Assembly (NCBI GenBank): GCA_963833095.1
Contig: CAWHWQ010000005.1
Span: 192,001-256,000 of the forward strand
Source of the DNA: Vulcanimicrobiota bacterium
Lineage (GTDB): Bacteria > Vulcanimicrobiota > Vulcanimicrobiia > Vulcanimicrobiales > Vulcanimicrobiaceae
Reading direction: 5' to 3'
Length of the DNA stretch: 64,000 nt
This document shows, one piece after another, positions 17,893 through 25,272 of this stretch. The notes below the pieces were generated by a model that was not told where the DNA came from, made no database searches, and saw only the letters and a list, made by a program, of their open reading frames with translations. Position 1 is the first letter of the stretch. The number at the start of each line of letters is the position of its first letter. A program made the translations under genes and the position numbers.

Positions 17893-19320
17893 CGCATCGC
17901 TCTACCCGCGCGGGCACTGGGCGGTTTCAGCGGCGCGCTTGCTCTCGCTGGCCGTGACGGCGAGTCCCTGGCCAGCGCATCGATCGCGTGCCAGCGCCCG
18001 CTGCCGCCAGCGCGCGCGCGGCGCGCGCCGCTTATCGCGGCGTCGCTTGCCGGCGCGATCGAGCGGCGAGAACCAGGCCCAGGTGACGTTGGCCGGTTGG
18101 AAGTCGTGCGGTCTGCGGCGTTCTGCAGGTGCGCGACGACCGCGCCGAGCGCGGTGTCGCGCGGGAACTCGACGGGCGGCAAGCCCAGCAGCGCTGCGTG
18201 CCGCGTGCGATACCGGCCATCGCGCCGCAGGCGGCCGCCTCGACGTAGCCTTCGGCGCCGGTGATCTGCCCCGCGAAGTAGAGCGCGTCGTGCGCCGCGC
18301 AAGCGCAAGCTGCGCGTCGAGCAGGCGCGGCGAGTCGATGAACGTGTTGCGGTGCATCACGCCCAGGCGCAGCCACTCCGCGTTCGCGAGGCCGGGCAGT
18401 TTGCCGAACGCTTCTTTTTGCGCCGGCCACGTCAGGCGCGTTTGGAAGCCGACGAGGTTGAGCGCGGTGCCGTCCGCGTTTTCTTTGCGCAGTTGCACGA
18501 CCGCGTAGCGGCGTCTTGCCGGTCCGCGGATCGCGCAGGCCGACCGGCTTGAGCGGGCCGAAGCGCAGCGCGTCGTCGCCGCGCTCGGCCATCTCTTCGA
18601 TCGGCAGACAGCCTTCGAAGTACGGTACTTGCCGGCGCGACGTCGACTCGAAATCTTTGGGCTCGTGCCGCGGCAGCGTGCGCAGATCGTGCGATGAAGC
18701 TGCGCGTACTGCTCGCGGTCGAGCGGGATGTTGAGATAGTCGTCGCCGTCGCCCTTATCGTAGCGCGACTTGCGATACATCGGCGACTCGTCGATCGAAT
18801 CGGCCGCCACGATCGGCGAGGCCGCATCGTAATAGTGCAGCCGGCCGCTTCGCCGACGAGACGCGTCGAGTCGATGCGCGGCAAGCGCGTCGATCGGGCA
18901 GCGGCCCGCAGGCGACGATCGCCGGACGGTCGCAGCGGAATCGCGGTCACTTCTTCGCGCATGAGCGTGATGCGCGGGTGCGCCGAGCAGCCGCGACTCG
19001 ACCGATCGCGCGAAACGCTCGCGGTCGACCGCCAACGCGCCGCCGGCCGGCACGGCCGCTTCGCGCGCCGAGGTAACGATCAGCGAATCGAGCCGCGCCA
19101 GTTCTTCTTTCAGCAAGCCGACGGCGTTCTCGAGCGCCGCGCCGCGCAGCGAGTTGCTGCAGACCAGTTCCGCCAGCGCGTCGGTCTGGTGCGCGGGCCC
19201 GCTGGAATGCGGGCGCATCTCGTACAGATCGCACGTCGACGCCCGCGCTGCGCGAGCCTGCCACGCGGCTTCGCAGCCGGCGAGGCCGCCGCCGATGACG
19301 GAGTCGTCAGCAGCGCGCAT
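17889..19320 (-). CDS. trmFO: tRNA m5U54 methyltransferase TrmFO (apparent frameshifts; 3' end approximate)
   Basis: [66 protein letters not shown]. Confidence 0.92.
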
Positions 19321-21542
19321 CGAGATCCGCAGCGGCGGATTCCAAGCGCATCGCGCCGCCGGCTCGTCTCTTCGCGAGTTCGCGGCTTCGCTCGGTCTCG
19401 CGCGGCGCTTGCCAGCGACGACACGTCGTGCTTCTTGTCGGCGCGCGCACTCGAAGCGCACGACGCCGCCGCGCTTGGTTTTCGCGACGACGTAGAGCCG
19501 CAGACCGGGCACGGCTGCGGGAACGACGCGATCCCACGAGACGAAGTCGCACTTCGGGATAGTTGGCGCAGCCGTAGAACGTGCGGCCCTTGCGCGACTT
19601 GCGCTCGACGATCATGCCGCCGTCCTTGGGACAGATCGCGCCGGTGTCTTTGAGGATCGGCTTCGTCGTCTTGCACTCGGGATAGCCCGTGCACGAGATG
19701 AACTTGCCGAAGCGGCCGGTCTTGATGACCATCGGCCGCTCGCAGTTCGGGCAGATCTCGTCGGTCGGCTCGTCGCGTTGATCTCGAGACTTCGGCAGCT
19801 TCTTCTCGGCGTCCTCGAGCTCGAGGGCGAACGGTCCGTAGAACGTCGCGCAGCACGCCGACCCAATCGGCCGTCGCCCTCGGCGACTTTGTCGAGATCG
19901 CCCTCCATCGCGGCCGTGAAGTCGAGATCGACGATGTCTTTGAAGTGCTCGGCCAGCAGGTCGTTGACTGCGATGCCGATCTCGGTCGGTGAAAGCGGCG
20001 CTCTTCTTGCGTCGACGTAGCCGCGAGCCTGAATCGTATCGACGATCGTGCAGTAGGTCGACGGGCCGGCCGATGCCGTTCTCTTCGAGCGCCTTCACCA
20101 GCGAGGCTTCGGTGTAGCGCGGCGGCGGCTCGGTGAAATGCTGCTTCGGGTCGATGCGCGCGGCGGTCGAGCGCATCGTCGCTCGAGCAATTCGGGCAAA
20201 CGCACGCGGGTCTTGCCTTTGCGGCGCGCCGTTGGTCTTGGCCGCAGCGTCGCCATTTTGCGCGTCTTCGTCTTTGCCTTCTTCATATACGCGGGTGAAG
20301 CCGGCGAACTTGCACGAGCTGCCGGTCGCGCGGAACGTGTAATCGCGCGGCGCTGATATCGACGGTCGTTTGGTCGAAGACCGCCGGCGCCATCTGCGAA
20401 GCGACGAAGCGCTCCCAGATCAGCGTGTACAGCCGCAGCTCGTCGCGTTTGAGCACGTGCGCGACGCTATCGGGCGTGCGAGAGACACGGTCGGGCGGAT
20501 CGCTTCGTGCGCGTCTTGCGCGCCTTCGCGCACTCTTGTACGGTCGCTCCACCGTGAAATTCTGCGCCGTAGGTCGCGGTCGATGAACTCGCGGGCCGCA
20601 TCGCGCGCCGAGTCGGCGATGCGCGTCGAGTCGGTACGCATGTAGGTGATCAGACCTTGGGTGCCGTCGGCCCCGCCCAGATCGACGCCTTCGTAAAGAG
20701 CCTGCGCGATCTGCATGGTGCGCCGGACGCGCAAGCGTCAACTTGCGCGAGGCCTCTTGCTGCAGGGTCGAGGTGGTGAACGGCGCCGGAGCGTTGCGGC
20801 GCACCTCGCGGCGCTTGACCGACGCGACCGAAAACGCCGCGCCTTCCAGAGCGCGCATCACCCCATCGGCCTGTTCTTGGTTGGTGATCTCCAGCTTCTC
20901 GCCACGATGCGAGACCAGATCTGCCGGGAAGACGATTGCCGGATCGCGCTCGGTCGCGAGCTGCGCGGTCACGGTCCAGTACTCGCGCGGAATGAAGGCC
21001 CTGATTTCGCGCTCGCGGTCGACGATCAGCCGGACGGCCACCGACTGCACGCGCCCGGCCGAGAGGCCGCCGCGGACCTTGGCCCAGAGCAGCGGCGAAA
21101 TTTTATAGCCGACCAGCCGGTCGAGAATGCGTCGCGCCTGCTGCGCGTTCACGCGATCCATATCGATCTGATGCGGGATTTGATTGCGGCGAGCGCCGCG
21201 TCTTTGGTGATCTCGTGAAGTTCGATCCGCTTGGGGTCTTGGAGCTTGAGCAGCTCGGCGAGATGCCATGCGATCGCTTCGCCTTCGCGGTCGGGGTCGG
21301 TCGCGAGGTAGACCTCGCTCGCGGCTTTCACCGCGCTCTTGAGCTCTTTGATGACGTCGCCCTTGCCCTTGATCGTCAGATATTTGGGCGTGAAATCGTG
21401 TTCCACGTCGACGCCGAGCGTGATCTTGGGCAGATCGCGCACGTGCCCGACCGACGCCTTGACCACGATACCGCGGCGGGAGAAACTTCTTGATCGTCCG
21501 CGCCTTCGTCGGCGACTCCACGATGATCAGGGGCTTTTTCAC
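19320..21542 (-). CDS. topA: DNA topoisomerase I with C-terminal Zn ribbons (apparent frameshifts; 3' end approximate)
   Basis: GTG 21542 [69 protein letters not shown] ribbons. Confidence 0.95.
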
Positions 21543-21549
21543 GGGCCTA

Positions 21550-21579
21550 AGTATACTCCCGGGGTCAAGACCTGGGCAA
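21550..21579 (-). promoter_or_regulatory. Putative sigma70 promoter of topA (probably leaderless mRNA)
   Basis: Minus strand TTGCCC-18 nt-TATACT, with the -10 ending 7 nt before the GTG start; no SD. Confidence 0.6.
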
Positions 21580-21592
21580 ACCCGCTGGGCCC

Positions 21593-21640
21593 TACGCGCA
21601 CGCGTATGTGCGCGCGTACGCGTGCGCGTACGTGCGCGCG
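21593..21640. other. 48-bp perfect alternating pyrimidine-purine tract (Z-DNA/cruciform-prone)
   Basis: tacgcgcacgcgtatgtgcgcgcgtacgcgtgcgcgtacgtgcgcgcg: 24 YR steps (15 CG, 4 TG, 4 TA, 1 CA); contains a 14-bp inverted repeat 21593-21606/21617-21630. Confidence 0.85.
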
Positions 21641-21642
21641 AT

Positions 21643-21671
21643 TTGCATGATGCGTCAAAATCCTTTATAGT
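21643..21671 (+). promoter_or_regulatory. Putative sigma70 promoter of the histone-like gene
   Basis: TTGCAT-17 nt-TATAGT. Confidence 0.7.
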
Positions 21672-21741
21672 GCGCTTAAAGCGCAATTCGTGCGCTGTCC
21701 AAATAACGCTGTTCGTCCCCCCGGGGGACGAGGAGGAATGA

Positions 21742-22134
21742 ATGGACTCCGATACCATGATGAACGGCGAGACAATGGCCGAGGCTAAGAAGCCGCGCCG
21801 TAAAGCTCGCCGCAAAAAGGCCGGGACGGCCAAAAAGGCAGCCGGCGGACGCAAGAAAGCGACGCGAAAGAAAGCTGCCGGCGGACGCAAGAAGTCCACG
21901 CGAAAGAAGGCCGCAGGCGGACGCAAGAAGGCGACGCGCAAGAAGGCTGGACGCAAAAAGGCCGGCGGACGTAAGAAGAAAGCCGGCGGACGCAAGAAAA
22001 AAGCCGGCACGCGCAAGAAAGCCGCTGGACGTAAGAAAGCCGGCGGACGCAAGAAAAAGGCCGTCGGACGCAAGAAGACCGCTGGACGCAAAAAGGCCGG
22101 CGGGCGCAAGAAGACCCGGAAGAAAAAAGCCTAG
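21742..22134 (+). CDS. Lys/Arg-rich histone H1-like nucleoid protein
   Basis: AGGAGG 5 nt before ATG; repeated KKAAGGRKK motifs with synonymous codon variation; own promoter and terminator. Confidence 0.85.
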   Translation: MDSDTMMNGETMAEAKKPRRKARRKKAGTAKKAAGGRKKATRKKAAGGRKKSTRKKAAGGRKKATRKKAGRKKAGGRKKKAGGRKKKAGTRKKAAGRKKAGGRKKKAVGRKKTAGRKKAGGRKKTRKKKA

Positions 22135-22169
22135 CGTTTTGACGCGCTCATCACCCTAGCTTTTAATGA

Positions 22170-22199
22170 AGGCGGACGAAAGTCCGCCTGATTTTTTTC
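22170..22199 (+). terminator. Rho-independent terminator
   Basis: aggcggac-GAAA-gtccgcct followed by gatttttttc. Confidence 0.8.
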
Positions 22200-22200
22200 T

Positions 22201-22407
22201 TGCCGCACGATGCGGCTGAAGGTTCGGAGCACAGGATGTGCGACCGCCGAAGGCGGCCGAATCGTCTTATGCCGCACGATGCGGCTGAAGGTTCGGAGCA
22301 CAGGATGTGCGACCGCCGAAGGCGGCCGAATCGTCTTATGCCGCACGATGCGGCTGAAGGTTCGGAGCACAGGATGTGCGACCGCCGAAGGCGGCCGAAT
22401 CGTCTTA
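22201..22407. repeat. Three identical tandem 69-bp units rich in hairpins
   Basis: Units 22201-22269, 22270-22338, 22339-22407; no spacers. Confidence 0.95.
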
Positions 22408-23190
22408 TGCTATCTGTTGTTCGACGCCGCCGTCGAGCCGGACGATGAAGGTGTGCACGTCGGCATTGAAGCTCCACTCGTGTATCAGAAGCCCGGCGGA
22501 TTCGAGCCCAATTCCCAGGCGTGAACGTCCGAGTACGAACTGCGGTGACGTGCTCGGCGCGGTGCACGCAACGGTCCCGTTCCATGGGTGCATCAGGACC
22601 GTGTGCAGATGCCCGGCAATGATGCGAGCGATCTGTGGATGGGCCCGCACGACGCCAGCCAGGCCGTTGACGTTCTCAAACCCATACGCATCGAGGCCCG
22701 GCAGGCCGGTGCGAAAGGGCGGGTGATGCATCGCTAAGATCGTCGGCCGTCGCGGGTGGGCACGCAGCTCAGCGTCGAGCCAAGCAAGACGTTCATCGTC
22801 GACGAATCCGCCAGCGCGACCCGGGGTCGTGGAATCTAGGCCGATGATGCGCAGCGGCCACGCCTCGATCGCGAAGCTCGCGTGCGATGCGAACGTCCCC
22901 AAATAACGATGATCGCGAAAGGCCCGGCGGAGCGATTCGCGATCATCATGGTTTCCTGGAATCAAAAAGTGCGGAATCTCGAGCCGCCCGAGGATCGACC
23001 GCAATCGTCGATACTCGTGCGGCGAACCTCTTTCGGTGAGGTCGCCCGTTGCGAGGACGATGTCGGGCCGAGGCTGCATTGCGTGCAAGCGGGCAATCGT
23101 GCGGCGAAGGTAGTCGGCCGTATTGGGCATGTGGTGCAGCACGTGCCCGCGGCGGCGAATATGCAGATCCGAAATTTGCGCGACGATCAC
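22405..23190 (-). CDS. Metallophosphoesterase, CpdA/Icc-like cyclic nucleotide phosphodiesterase
   Basis: SDLH, TGDL, PGNHD, MHHPP, AGHLH motifs. Confidence 0.9.
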   Translation of the reverse strand: MIVAQISDLHIRRRGHVLHHMPNTADYLRRTIARLHAMQPRPDIVLATGDLTERGSPHEYRRLRSILGRLEIPHFLIPGNHDDRESLRRAFRDHRYLGTFASHASFAIEAWPLRIIGLDSTTPGRAGGFVDDERLAWLDAELRAHPRRPTILAMHHPPFRTGLPGLDAYGFENVNGLAGVVRAHPQIARIIAGHLHTVLMHPWNGTVACTAPSTSPQFVLGRSRLGIGLESAGLLIHEWSFNADVHTFIVRLDGGVEQQIA

Positions 23191-23276: not shown

Positions 23277-24250
<974 letters not shown>

Positions 24251-24254
<4 letters not shown>

Positions 24255-25272
24255 GGCGACCTCCGGTGACGCGGGGCGTCCTCGAGCTGCGCTGACCCTC
24301 GGCGCGTTCGTCGTAGAGGCAACAGCGCGCCACGTGGCCCTCCGAAATCATAGAGCGCAACCGGCTCGGCGCAGATCGGCATACGCGCATCGCAGCGCGG
24401 CGCGAAAGCGCAGCCCGGCGGCAAGTTGAGCAGATTCGGCGGTTGACCTTTGATCGGCTCCAGACGGCGCTGCGTGGAATCGTCTAGTCGCGGAAGCGAC
24501 GCGAGCAATCCTTGCGTGTACGGCATCTTGGGTTGGTGGAAGATTTGGTCGGCGGTGCCGTATTCCACCATGTTGCCGCCGTACATCACCAGCACGTTCT
24601 TGCAGACTTCGGCGACCACGCCGAGATCGTGGGTGATCAGGATGATCGCCGCACCGGTTTCCGCTTGCATCTCGTTCATCAGCTCGAGAATTTGCGCTTG
24701 GATCGTGACGTCGAGCGCGGTCGTCGGTTCGTCGGCGATCAGCACTTGCGGATTGCAGGACAGGGCCATGGCGATCATCACTCGCTGGCGCATGCCGCCG
24801 GAAAACTGGTGCGGATAGTCGTCGATGCGTCGCTCGGGCGCCGGAATGCGCACTTTGCCGCAGCATCTCGACGGCCTTGTCGCGCGATTCCTTGCGCGAA
24901 TAAGCCAAGATGCAGCCGCACAGCTTCGGCGATCTGCTCGCCGACGGTCAGCACCGGATTGAGCGAGGTCATCGGGTCTTGGAAGATCATCGCGATCTCG
25001 TGGCCGCGAATCTTGCGCATCTGCGGCTTCGCTCTTTGTCAGCAAGTCTTCGCCCTCGAAGAGCATCCCGTCGCTCGATCCCGGTCGCGTTGCGTGAACA
25101 GGAGTCGCATGATCGATAGCGAGGTCACCGATTTTCCTGATCCCGATTCGCCGACGATGCCGAGCGTCTTGCCGGCTTCGAGCGAAAACGACAGCCCGTT
25201 GACGGCCGTCACCGGCCCATCTTCCGTACGAAAGGTCGTACGGAGATTCCGGACATCGAGCAGCGGCTGACA
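24251..25272 (-). CDS. Oligopeptide ABC transporter ATPase, OppD-like (apparent frameshifts; start approximate)
   Basis: [43 protein letters not shown]. Confidence 0.88.

Follow-up and report, generated by a model that had tools for sequence, protein, structure and literature searches.

Whether Z-DNA has a function in bacteria has been an open question for forty years. Engineered alternating inserts in Escherichia coli take up the negative supercoils generated by transcription and thereby alter promoter output, and a distant B-Z transition reportedly inhibits the supercoiling-dependent activation of ilvPG, an observation attributed to Sheridan, Benham and Hatfield in 1999. The supercoiling response of the Halobacterium bop promoter is said to have been linked by Yang, Kim, Molinari and DasSarma in 1996 to an alternating element that is prone to non-B structure, and the E. 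coli topA and gyrA/gyrB promoters are reportedly homeostatic and sensitive to supercoiling, as described by Menzel and Gellert in 1983 and in later work. The present analysis concerns a 48-bp tract of strict pyrimidine-purine (YR) alternation at positions 21593-21640 of a 64,000-nucleotide stretch of DNA, referred to here as the window, that was taken from a Vulcanimicrobiota bacterium (assembly GCA_963833095.1, contig CAWHWQ010000005.1, positions 192,001 to 256,000). The tract lies between the outward-facing putative promoters of topA, which encodes topoisomerase I, and of a gene for a very basic protein that is termed H1-like here. As judged from its sequence, the tract may be a switch in DNA shape that responds to DNA twist, for which natural candidates are rare.

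The locus shares features with each of the described systems and departs from each. As in E. coli plasmids with engineered (CG)n/(TG)n Z-DNA inserts (Sheridan et al. 1999; Rahmouni and Wells 1989), an alternating tract is situated within the topological domain of a promoter. Unlike these artificial inserts, the tract occurs naturally, is the only one of its kind in its genome, has been conserved over three genera, and adjoins a -35 hexamer. The bop promoter similarly is a natural prokaryotic promoter with an alternating tract, but it is archaeal, its element is short (~11 bp) and located within the core promoter, and it does not belong to a topoisomerase locus. Like the E. coli topA and gyr promoters, the locus includes a topoisomerase gene with a promoter region that would be expected to respond to the superhelical state. 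In E. coli, however, the response is attributed to the core promoter (spacer and discriminator) instead of an upstream non-B element, and the tract here is bound to the promoter of the neighboring gene. The arrangement also resembles eukaryotic promoter flipons, in which a conformational switch encoded by alternation is positioned upstream of the start site, although flipons work in chromatin with Z-alpha proteins. Alternating tracts are described as generally suppressed in prokaryotic genomes in a survey (PMC4060949), and a 2026 review (PMC13463272) characterizes the in vivo evidence that Z-DNA regulates bacterial genes as limited. No topA locus with such a tract was found among the papers listed in the literature searched, the coverage of which left out most subscription journals.

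The composition of the tract (TACGCGCACGCG TATGTGCGCGCG TACGCGTGCGCG TACGTGCGCGCG) was established both by direct reading and by script. Each bore out the claim of an initial sequence-only reading that the alternation is unbroken and that 15 of its 24 steps are CG; the remaining dinucleotide units comprise four TA, four TG and one CA, and the G+C content is 81% (39 of 48 bases). The tract therefore has the sequence pattern associated with Z-DNA, an alternating run of at least ~12-14 bp that is rich in CG and CA/TG. Scanning of the entire 2.8-Mb assembly for alternating runs yielded a single run of 48 bp followed by one of 22 bp, six of 20 bp and nine of 19 bp, with counts that dropped ~two-fold with each extra base in the genome-wide histogram; the second-longest run in the window is 16 bp. 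The genome has a G+C content of 62% and is rich in CGCG (49,466 occurrences, roughly twice the expectation from base composition), a bias that is already incorporated in simulations based on its trinucleotide statistics. The longest alternating runs in 20 genomes simulated in this way spanned 21-28 bp (mean 23.1). Thus, the second-longest run of 22 bp is at chance level, whereas the 48-bp tract is not, and equally long alternating tracts are not a common property of this CGCG-rich genome. The tract also is supported by other sequence data as it is carried by independent contigs from four public runs of one study (X1-X4). One record from X3 (record 19, covering 21553-21716) and one from X4 (record 29, covering 21574-21812) are identical to the window. 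Records from X1 and X2 span it as well, and no difference or indel was observed within the tract among the matches listed.

Three open reading frames (ORFs) that overlie the tract (21339-21650 and 21490-21741 on the plus strand, and 20283-22109 on the minus strand) were rejected as genes since no frame is kept: the adjacent spacer varies among congeners, with lengths of 12, 13, 14, 15 and 35-38 nt. An Rfam search of the region 21000-23000 with E values up to 1 produced only far-sub-threshold matches to microRNAs and small RNAs that were due to the alternation.

A consensus promoter scan of 1.2 kb found exactly two sites compared to 0.2 expected in shuffled sequences. These are the promoters that had been proposed beforehand, TTGCCC-18-TATACT for topA and TTGCAT-17-TATAGT for the H1-like gene. 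The scan reports the latter one base leftward as TTTGCA-18-TATAGT, with the first hexamer starting at 21642, which is the same site as that with the -35 hexamer at 21643-21648. The distances of 14 bp and 3 bp that had been assigned from the tract to the -35 hexamers of topA and the H1-like gene, respectively, also are correct, with intervening gaps of 13 nt and 2 nt in the window. The predicted starts of the two outward-facing promoters are ~136 bp apart, near enough for the promoters to share upstream supercoils, and both promoters are conserved in relatives. The spacing on the two sides of the tract behaves differently, however. In all 27 genomes in which the long tract was located (see below), its end lies either 2 nt (22 genomes) or 0 nt (five genomes, all from genus g36) from the -35 hexamer of the H1-like gene, whereas the distance to the topA -35 hexamer floats between 12 and 81 nt. 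This fixed junction indicates that the tract is part of the H1-like promoter. By the same sequence comparison, topA would be at most an indirect partner that shares the torsional neighborhood of the tract, but not its spacing. The tract fills the interval from about -38 to -85 relative to the predicted start of the H1-like gene and thus is not an UP element, which is A+T-rich DNA at -40 to -60. The core of the H1-like promoter (ATTTGCATGATGCGTCAAAATCCTTTATAGT) is an A+T-rich island flanked by the tract and by GCGC blocks. The topA promoter, in the form AGTATAC...GTCAAG...GGCAA, is conserved across the family, and in most of the family its -10 hexamer (TATACT) ends 7 nt ahead of the GTG start codon such that the predicted mRNA is leaderless or nearly so. 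Other families of the class possess a TTGACA-17-TATAGT version of the topA promoter ~50 nt upstream.

Two further sequence features were noted in the promoter region. A segment of ~23 bp that resembles CCTGAGCTTGTCGAAGGATG occurs in the spacer between the topA -35 hexamer and the tract in eight of 17 congeners (L007, L009, L012, L016 and L018-L021), as well as at the same spot in some genomes of another genus (L073 and L074). A loose form of this word has six occurrences in the source genome, and it may be a small repeat element. The sequence GCGCTTAAAGCGC at 21672-21684 is a 13-bp palindrome (15 bp with flanks) that overlies the predicted transcription start of the H1-like gene. The palindrome is conserved across genera as GCGC-N5-GCGC, and could be an operator plus half of an RNA hairpin.

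The conservation of the tract was assessed in relatives, which are uncultured bacteria of soil, and the closest public records of which all are metagenome-assembled genomes. A 701-bp query around the tract matched 40 of the 41 genomes searched, a tally that includes the source genome (G000) and one unpublished genome (G036). Within the genus of the source genome (g1), all 16 congeners in which the locus is present have a tract at the same place, with an uninterrupted run of 39-46 bp in 15 of them; the run is 43-48 bp in 14 of 17 congeners when the source genome is counted. The other tract, in G013, consists of 25 bp and 27 bp segments split by a single transversion. In agreement, a 28-bp YR pattern matched 16 of the 18 genomes of the genus, again with G000 included, and the number of matches in each was that expected for one tract of the observed length, indicating that each genome has a single tract. 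The two genomes without a match were G013 and G007, which is 74% complete and in which the locus was not assembled. More widely, 28-bp alternation was detected in 33 of 301 genomes sampled from the class. A tract of 43-61 bp is located between topA and the H1-like gene in two additional genera, g35 (3/3 genomes) and g36 (6/6 genomes, plus G336). The tract thus is found at the same locus in 27 genomes of three genera, with lengths of 39-61 bp, and it is YR alternation and not sequence that is conserved upstream of topA. Tracts also are present at this locus in G057 (27 bp plus 29 bp) and in three genomes of genus g34 (30 bp). Matches of at least 28 bp in G137, G167, G243 and G196 were rejected as unrelated repeats elsewhere, at other loci, and the matches in G210 and G224 were left out of the locus check.

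Across the family, the promoter and 5' untranslated region (UTR) of the H1-like gene show conservation in 125 of 271 genomes and in 28 of 78 genera, tallies that include the unpublished genomes G176, G219 and G197. Forty further loci from 17 genera mostly possess a shorter CG-alternating box that abuts the motif (A)ATTTGCA. The boxes are 26-30 bp in four of five g34 genomes, 14-21 bp or missing in g20, and take the form of several 14-28-bp segments with phase breaks in the three g50 genomes. When loci were instead collected with TopA, 80 were found, of which 78 included upstream DNA. All 11 loci with at least 84% TopA identity to the query have tracts of 39-61 bp; in the other 67 the tract does not exceed 30 bp, except at one locus (82% identity) with 48 bp. 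The distribution of lengths over the TopA loci and genera indicates that an older short box was enlarged into the long tract specifically in this clade.

The pattern of substitutions within the tract differs sharply from that in the adjacent gene. Across all pairs of the 27 genomes, the last 44 columns of the tract, anchored at the right, displayed 0.29 transitions and 0.045 transversions per site. The corresponding values for four-fold degenerate sites in the first 44 codons of topA were 0.096 and 0.262. In 10 disjoint closest pairs, the topA four-fold sites had accumulated 128 transitions and 226 transversions (n = 1242), whereas 85 transitions and 17 transversions were counted in the tract (n = 380), where 69 transversions were expected. 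Moreover, 16 of these 17 transversions derive from one pair and reflect a single phase slip in G003. Five breaks in the alternation were observed overall in the 27 genomes; four of them are isolated in-phase transversions, one each in G013, G002, G006 and G100, and the fifth is the phase slip of G003. Thus, selection acts on the alternation itself. The most frequent neutral change in these G+C-rich genomes is transversion between G and C, and it is this class that the tract lacks, which rules out a role that requires only richness in G+C.

The tract also has an order finer than free alternation. Non-CG units recur at every third unit, with 95 pairs at a lag of three units compared to 54.7 +/- 5.2 in shuffles, and an excess also is evident at 12, 18 and 24 bp. 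In genus g1 the variable units hold fixed positions as counted from the promoter (units 5, 8, 11, 14, 17 and 20), a register that is less distinct in g35 and g36. CG occupies the three units nearest the promoter in 27, 26 and 23 of the 27 genomes. The longest pure CG run averages 3.56 units compared to 5.66 in shuffles, none of 1000 of which was as low, and TA units make up 12.5% of the total against 1.3% expected from the composition of four-fold sites. Tandem Repeats Finder detected periods of 6, 12 and 24 in the tract, with units that match at 64-87%. The 6-bp register, short CG runs and excess of TA therefore point to a degenerate (YR-CG-CG)n array and not to free alternation. This hexamer order fits three readings: the tract may descend from a hexamer repeat, perfect (CG)n may be selected against as prone to slippage, or the hexamers may be read by a protein.

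The energetics of a B-Z transition in the tract were modeled with twist values of 10.4 and 12 bp per turn and 0.4 turn per junction. Energies were those of SIBZ, which Table 1 of the source (PMC3024258) gives as 0.7, 1.3 and 2.5 kcal/mol for CG, CA/TG and TA units, respectively, and as 5 kcal/mol per junction. In a scan of the genome with a 5-kb domain, the sub-tract that flips most easily (30 bp) had a critical superhelical density (sigma) of -0.036 and ranked second, with a (CG)9 run in first place. For the same domain size, a one-run partition function of the locus predicted that the probability of Z-DNA in the tract is 0.03 at a sigma of -0.03, 0.75 at -0.035, and ~1 at -0.04, with a Z segment that lengthens from 25 bp to 46 bp between -0.035 and -0.06. 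The predicted onset shifted with domain size from -0.031 (10 kb) to -0.035 (5 kb) and -0.042 (2 kb). The usual unconstrained superhelical density is ~-0.03. As the predicted onset is at or beyond this value, the flip would need stress that is driven by transcription. The predicted onset was -0.035 to -0.0375 for all 27 tracts, but this agreement is nearly automatic for CG-rich tracts and was not used as support. In answer to whether the tract is a genome-wide outlier by SIBZ energies, it stands out in length (48 bp) and in the turns that it could absorb, but not in its threshold. Thus, the model suggests that the tract is no more sensitive than other sites, but would absorb two to three times more turns (~9), and so would resemble a sink that fills gradually more than a sharp trigger.

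The reality of the tract, its uniqueness and conservation, the selection on its alternation, its fixed junction with the -35 hexamer and its hexamer order are shown here, and very probably the tract is a selected structural cis-element. It is read as a cis-acting part of the H1-like promoter, with unbroken alternation containing CGCG cores as the selected property, and Z-DNA formation has about an even chance of being the means by which the tract works. Among known non-B forms, only Z-DNA has strict alternation with CG bias as its defining requirement. Z-DNA is favored by this feature in combination with the site between back-to-back promoters and the contact with the -35 hexamer. In the twin-domain model, polymerase leaves negative supercoils behind it and these pile up between divergent promoters. 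Leftward transcription of topA and rightward transcription of the H1-like gene would gather negative supercoils over the tract, which would start to flip from B-DNA to Z-DNA once the local sigma passes about -0.035. The Z segment would then grow from ~25 bp to ~46 bp with increasing stress, taking up ~9 turns at most. With only 0-2 bp separating the tract from the -35 hexamer, a flip would bring a B-Z junction, along with left-handed DNA, into the upstream contact zone of polymerase on the H1-like promoter. Expression of the H1-like gene would then track the torsional state, being either raised or lowered by the flip, which also would clamp or buffer the torsion that is available to the neighboring topA promoter. 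Gyrase, the source of negative supercoils, is present in the four congeners that were checked. Z-DNA formation in living cells, an effect on either promoter in one direction or the other, and any role of the H1-like protein in DNA topology are inferred. A Z-DNA switch is plausible. The full proposal of a working bacterial flipon, a B-Z switch selected for tens of millions of generations that turns torsion at a topA/nucleoid-protein promoter pair into a change in expression, is offered tentatively and with somewhat less than even expectation.

Several observations weigh against a Z-DNA switch. The tract is not optimized for Z-DNA as TA, which is the costliest alternating unit, is overrepresented, and the 6-bp register of units can be explained equally by a hexamer-reading protein. 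Many runs of 14-20 bp elsewhere in the genome have a B-Z threshold within 0.003 of that of the tract and its predicted onset therefore is not special, and the model considers a single Z run while omitting competing melting, cruciforms and proteins. The ancestral form across the family is a 10-30-bp box, and the original role may have been different since short boxes of this size are poor Z-formers. The genomes compared are relatives whose counts are not independent, which the disjoint-pair test lessens, but does not remove. Both transcription starts are predicted from promoter sequence.

The main rival to Z-DNA is an array of B-DNA binding sites for a protein that reads CGCG cores every 6 bp, either a regulator or the H1-like protein acting on its own gene, which would load beside the -35 hexamer. 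The 6-bp periodicity of non-CG units, their register from the promoter in genus g1, the near-constant CG identity of the promoter-proximal units, the ~ten-fold excess of TA over expectation, and the family-wide presence of short CG boxes at the same place all are in keeping with such an array. The CGCG cores do recur in 6-bp register, but they vary in copy number. The number of hexamers ranges from ~7 to 10, the variable unit can be any of TA, TG, CA and CG, the register is blurred in two of the three genera, and no regulator gene is linked to the locus, the neighbors of which are trmFO, phosphoesterase and ABC transporter genes. Furthermore, 6-bp spacing would alternate the sites between opposite faces of B-DNA, and a reader of CGCG cores would not alone bar transversions in the variable units, yet these also are absent. 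A protein array on B-form DNA is considered unlikely. A B-form, G+C-rich clamp or insulator that blocks the upstream spread of supercoil-driven promoter melting, or that isolates the two promoters, would suit an A+T-rich promoter core bracketed by the tract and GCGC blocks in a genome with 62% G+C. This role needs G+C and not alternation, so that G-to-C changes would be harmless, whereas transversions are depleted ~four-fold and nearly nonexistent when the single slip is disregarded, and TA units are enriched. The clamp accordingly is regarded as improbable.

Two further explanations attribute the tract to its repetitive or self-complementary nature. A hexanucleotide microsatellite without function, in which slippage renews the array and purges interruptions and thereby mimics selection, would account for the tandem periods, and the transition divergence at approximately twice that of four-fold sites is what misaligned repeat units would give. 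But slippage would be damped by the imperfect units of the tract, the longest pure CG runs fall below those of shuffles, length has been held at 39-61 bp over three genera with the promoter-side end fixed, the tract is the only one of its kind in each genome, and no length variant was seen in contigs of the four runs among the matches listed. The identical units and length polymorphism of a contingency (phase-variation) microsatellite likewise were not found, and neutral slippage is judged very improbable. Extrusion of a cruciform under negative supercoiling, which had been raised on the basis of a 14-bp inverted repeat in the tract, is the least probable of the readings considered. The tract does contain overlapping inverted repeats, and single-strand hairpin energies are -20 to -30 kcal/mol. 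Nevertheless, none of these repeats is perfect (arms of 13 nt match at 92%, of 14 nt at 86% and of 19 nt at 89%), self-complementarity of this kind arises in any CG-rich alternating tract, and no near-perfect inverted repeat beyond that expected from composition was found. Hairpin energies equaled those of unit shuffles in the 27 genomes (mean z -0.04), with only one genome below the 5% tail, which reveals the self-complementarity to be a by-product of alternation. There also is no conserved, fixed center of symmetry, and a cruciform does not require alternation.

Table 1. Features of the topA/H1-like gene region. Coordinates are those of the window.
Feature	Coordinates	Strand	Basis
topA for topoisomerase I, with GTG start at 21542 and apparent frameshifts at several points	19307..21542	-	Pfam Topoisom_bac in three frames, Zn_ribbon_Top1
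Putative topA promoter, TTGCCC-18-TATACT	21550..21579	-	Consensus scan; predicted start
Variable spacer between topA -35 and tract	21580..21592	.	12-81 nt in 27 genomes, unalignable
48-bp strict pyrimidine-purine alternation, degenerate (YR-CG-CG)8 hexamer array, candidate Z-DNA element	21593..21640	.	Run scan, repeats, comparison
Putative H1-like gene promoter, TTGCAT-17-TATAGT	21643..21671	+	Consensus scan
Predicted 5' UTR (~64 nt) of H1-like gene, two invariant stems then GGAGGA	21678..21741	+	Inverted repeat I7; RNA start inferred from -10
Gene for 130-aa Lys/Arg/Ala/Gly-rich (H1-like) protein, acidic N-terminus	21742..22134	+	Translation, composition
Terminator-like hairpin and T run after H1-like gene	22170..22199	+	Sequence scan

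The identity of topA, as assigned in the sequence-only reading, was confirmed by the Pfam matches (Table 1) and by its N-terminus, which is conserved in all 36 loci examined. Contigs from X1, X2 and X3 have one base fewer at 21467 and one more after 21176 (X4 lacks coverage there). Since these contigs differ from the window exactly where topA changes frame, the frameshifts most likely are assembly indels and the gene would not be a pseudogene. The source genome is 80.7% complete, its assembly has indel errors and gaps, and an ABC transporter ATPase domain nearby also is split between two ORFs (23676-25066). The gyrA gene is not in the source assembly, which was treated as an assembly gap as GyrA is present as one protein of 833-835 aa in each of the four congeners. 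No match to a cytosine-5 methyltransferase (PF00145) was obtained in the source genome at its 80.7% completeness, and a methylation-assisted mechanism, while possible, has no support. A search for a Z-alpha domain (PF02295) yielded no match in the source genome, but also none in any control genome.

The H1-like protein contains 43 lysine, 20 arginine, 24 alanine and 21 glycine residues among its 130 aa, with lysine plus arginine accounting for 48%. The initial description of the gene as histone-like thus holds for its very basic composition, on which the label depends, and not for family membership as no Pfam or NCBIfam family was matched. The closest clusters in the Atlas consist of unnamed proteins from the same phylum, with a weak lead to HC2 (0.88) that is to be taken as a lead only. 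Positions 21835-22114 of the gene are made of 15-57-bp tandem repeats, identified with Tandem Repeats Finder, that encode units of AAGGRKK type. Similar repeat DNA elsewhere in the genome (C1, ~594,100) suggests a second gene of the H1-like kind.

In the predicted 5' UTR of the H1-like gene, the first stem pairs GCGC at 21681-21684 with 21692-21695 at the 5' terminus around a variable loop, and the second pairs TCGTCCCCC (21713-21721) with GGGGGACGA (21723-21731). GUCCA at 21697-21701 is able to pair with UGGAC (21743-21747) in the region of the start codon. The 5' UTR varies hardly at all across the family, and no covariation was detected in a 27-sequence alignment (A1), in which all stems are invariant. 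These features make translational control of the H1-like gene by its 5' UTR possible. The second stem, a hairpin of CGUCCCCC and GGGGGACG, stands directly ahead of the Shine-Dalgarno sequence. Past the terminator of the gene, positions 22201-22410 comprise three perfect tandem copies of a 69-bp unit, ~20 diverged copies of which are distributed across the genome (23 blastn matches in all). Contigs from two runs skip 22179-22404 and have 27 other letters instead, which points to related strains without the 69-bp-repeat insert. The repeat resembles a small mobile or REP-like element.

The family of the source organism offers a natural control for the proposed B-Z switch as the same promoter is accompanied by 0, 10-30 or 40-60 bp of alternating DNA, and only changes that keep the alternation are tolerated in the long form. 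Although the relatives are metagenome-assembled, the element with both promoters is ~140 bp, and hence can be synthesized and tested in E. coli, where variants with transitions only are predicted to function and those with transversions to fail. If the proposal is true, a topoisomerase locus and a very basic putative DNA-binding protein would be tied to a physical sensor of DNA twist.

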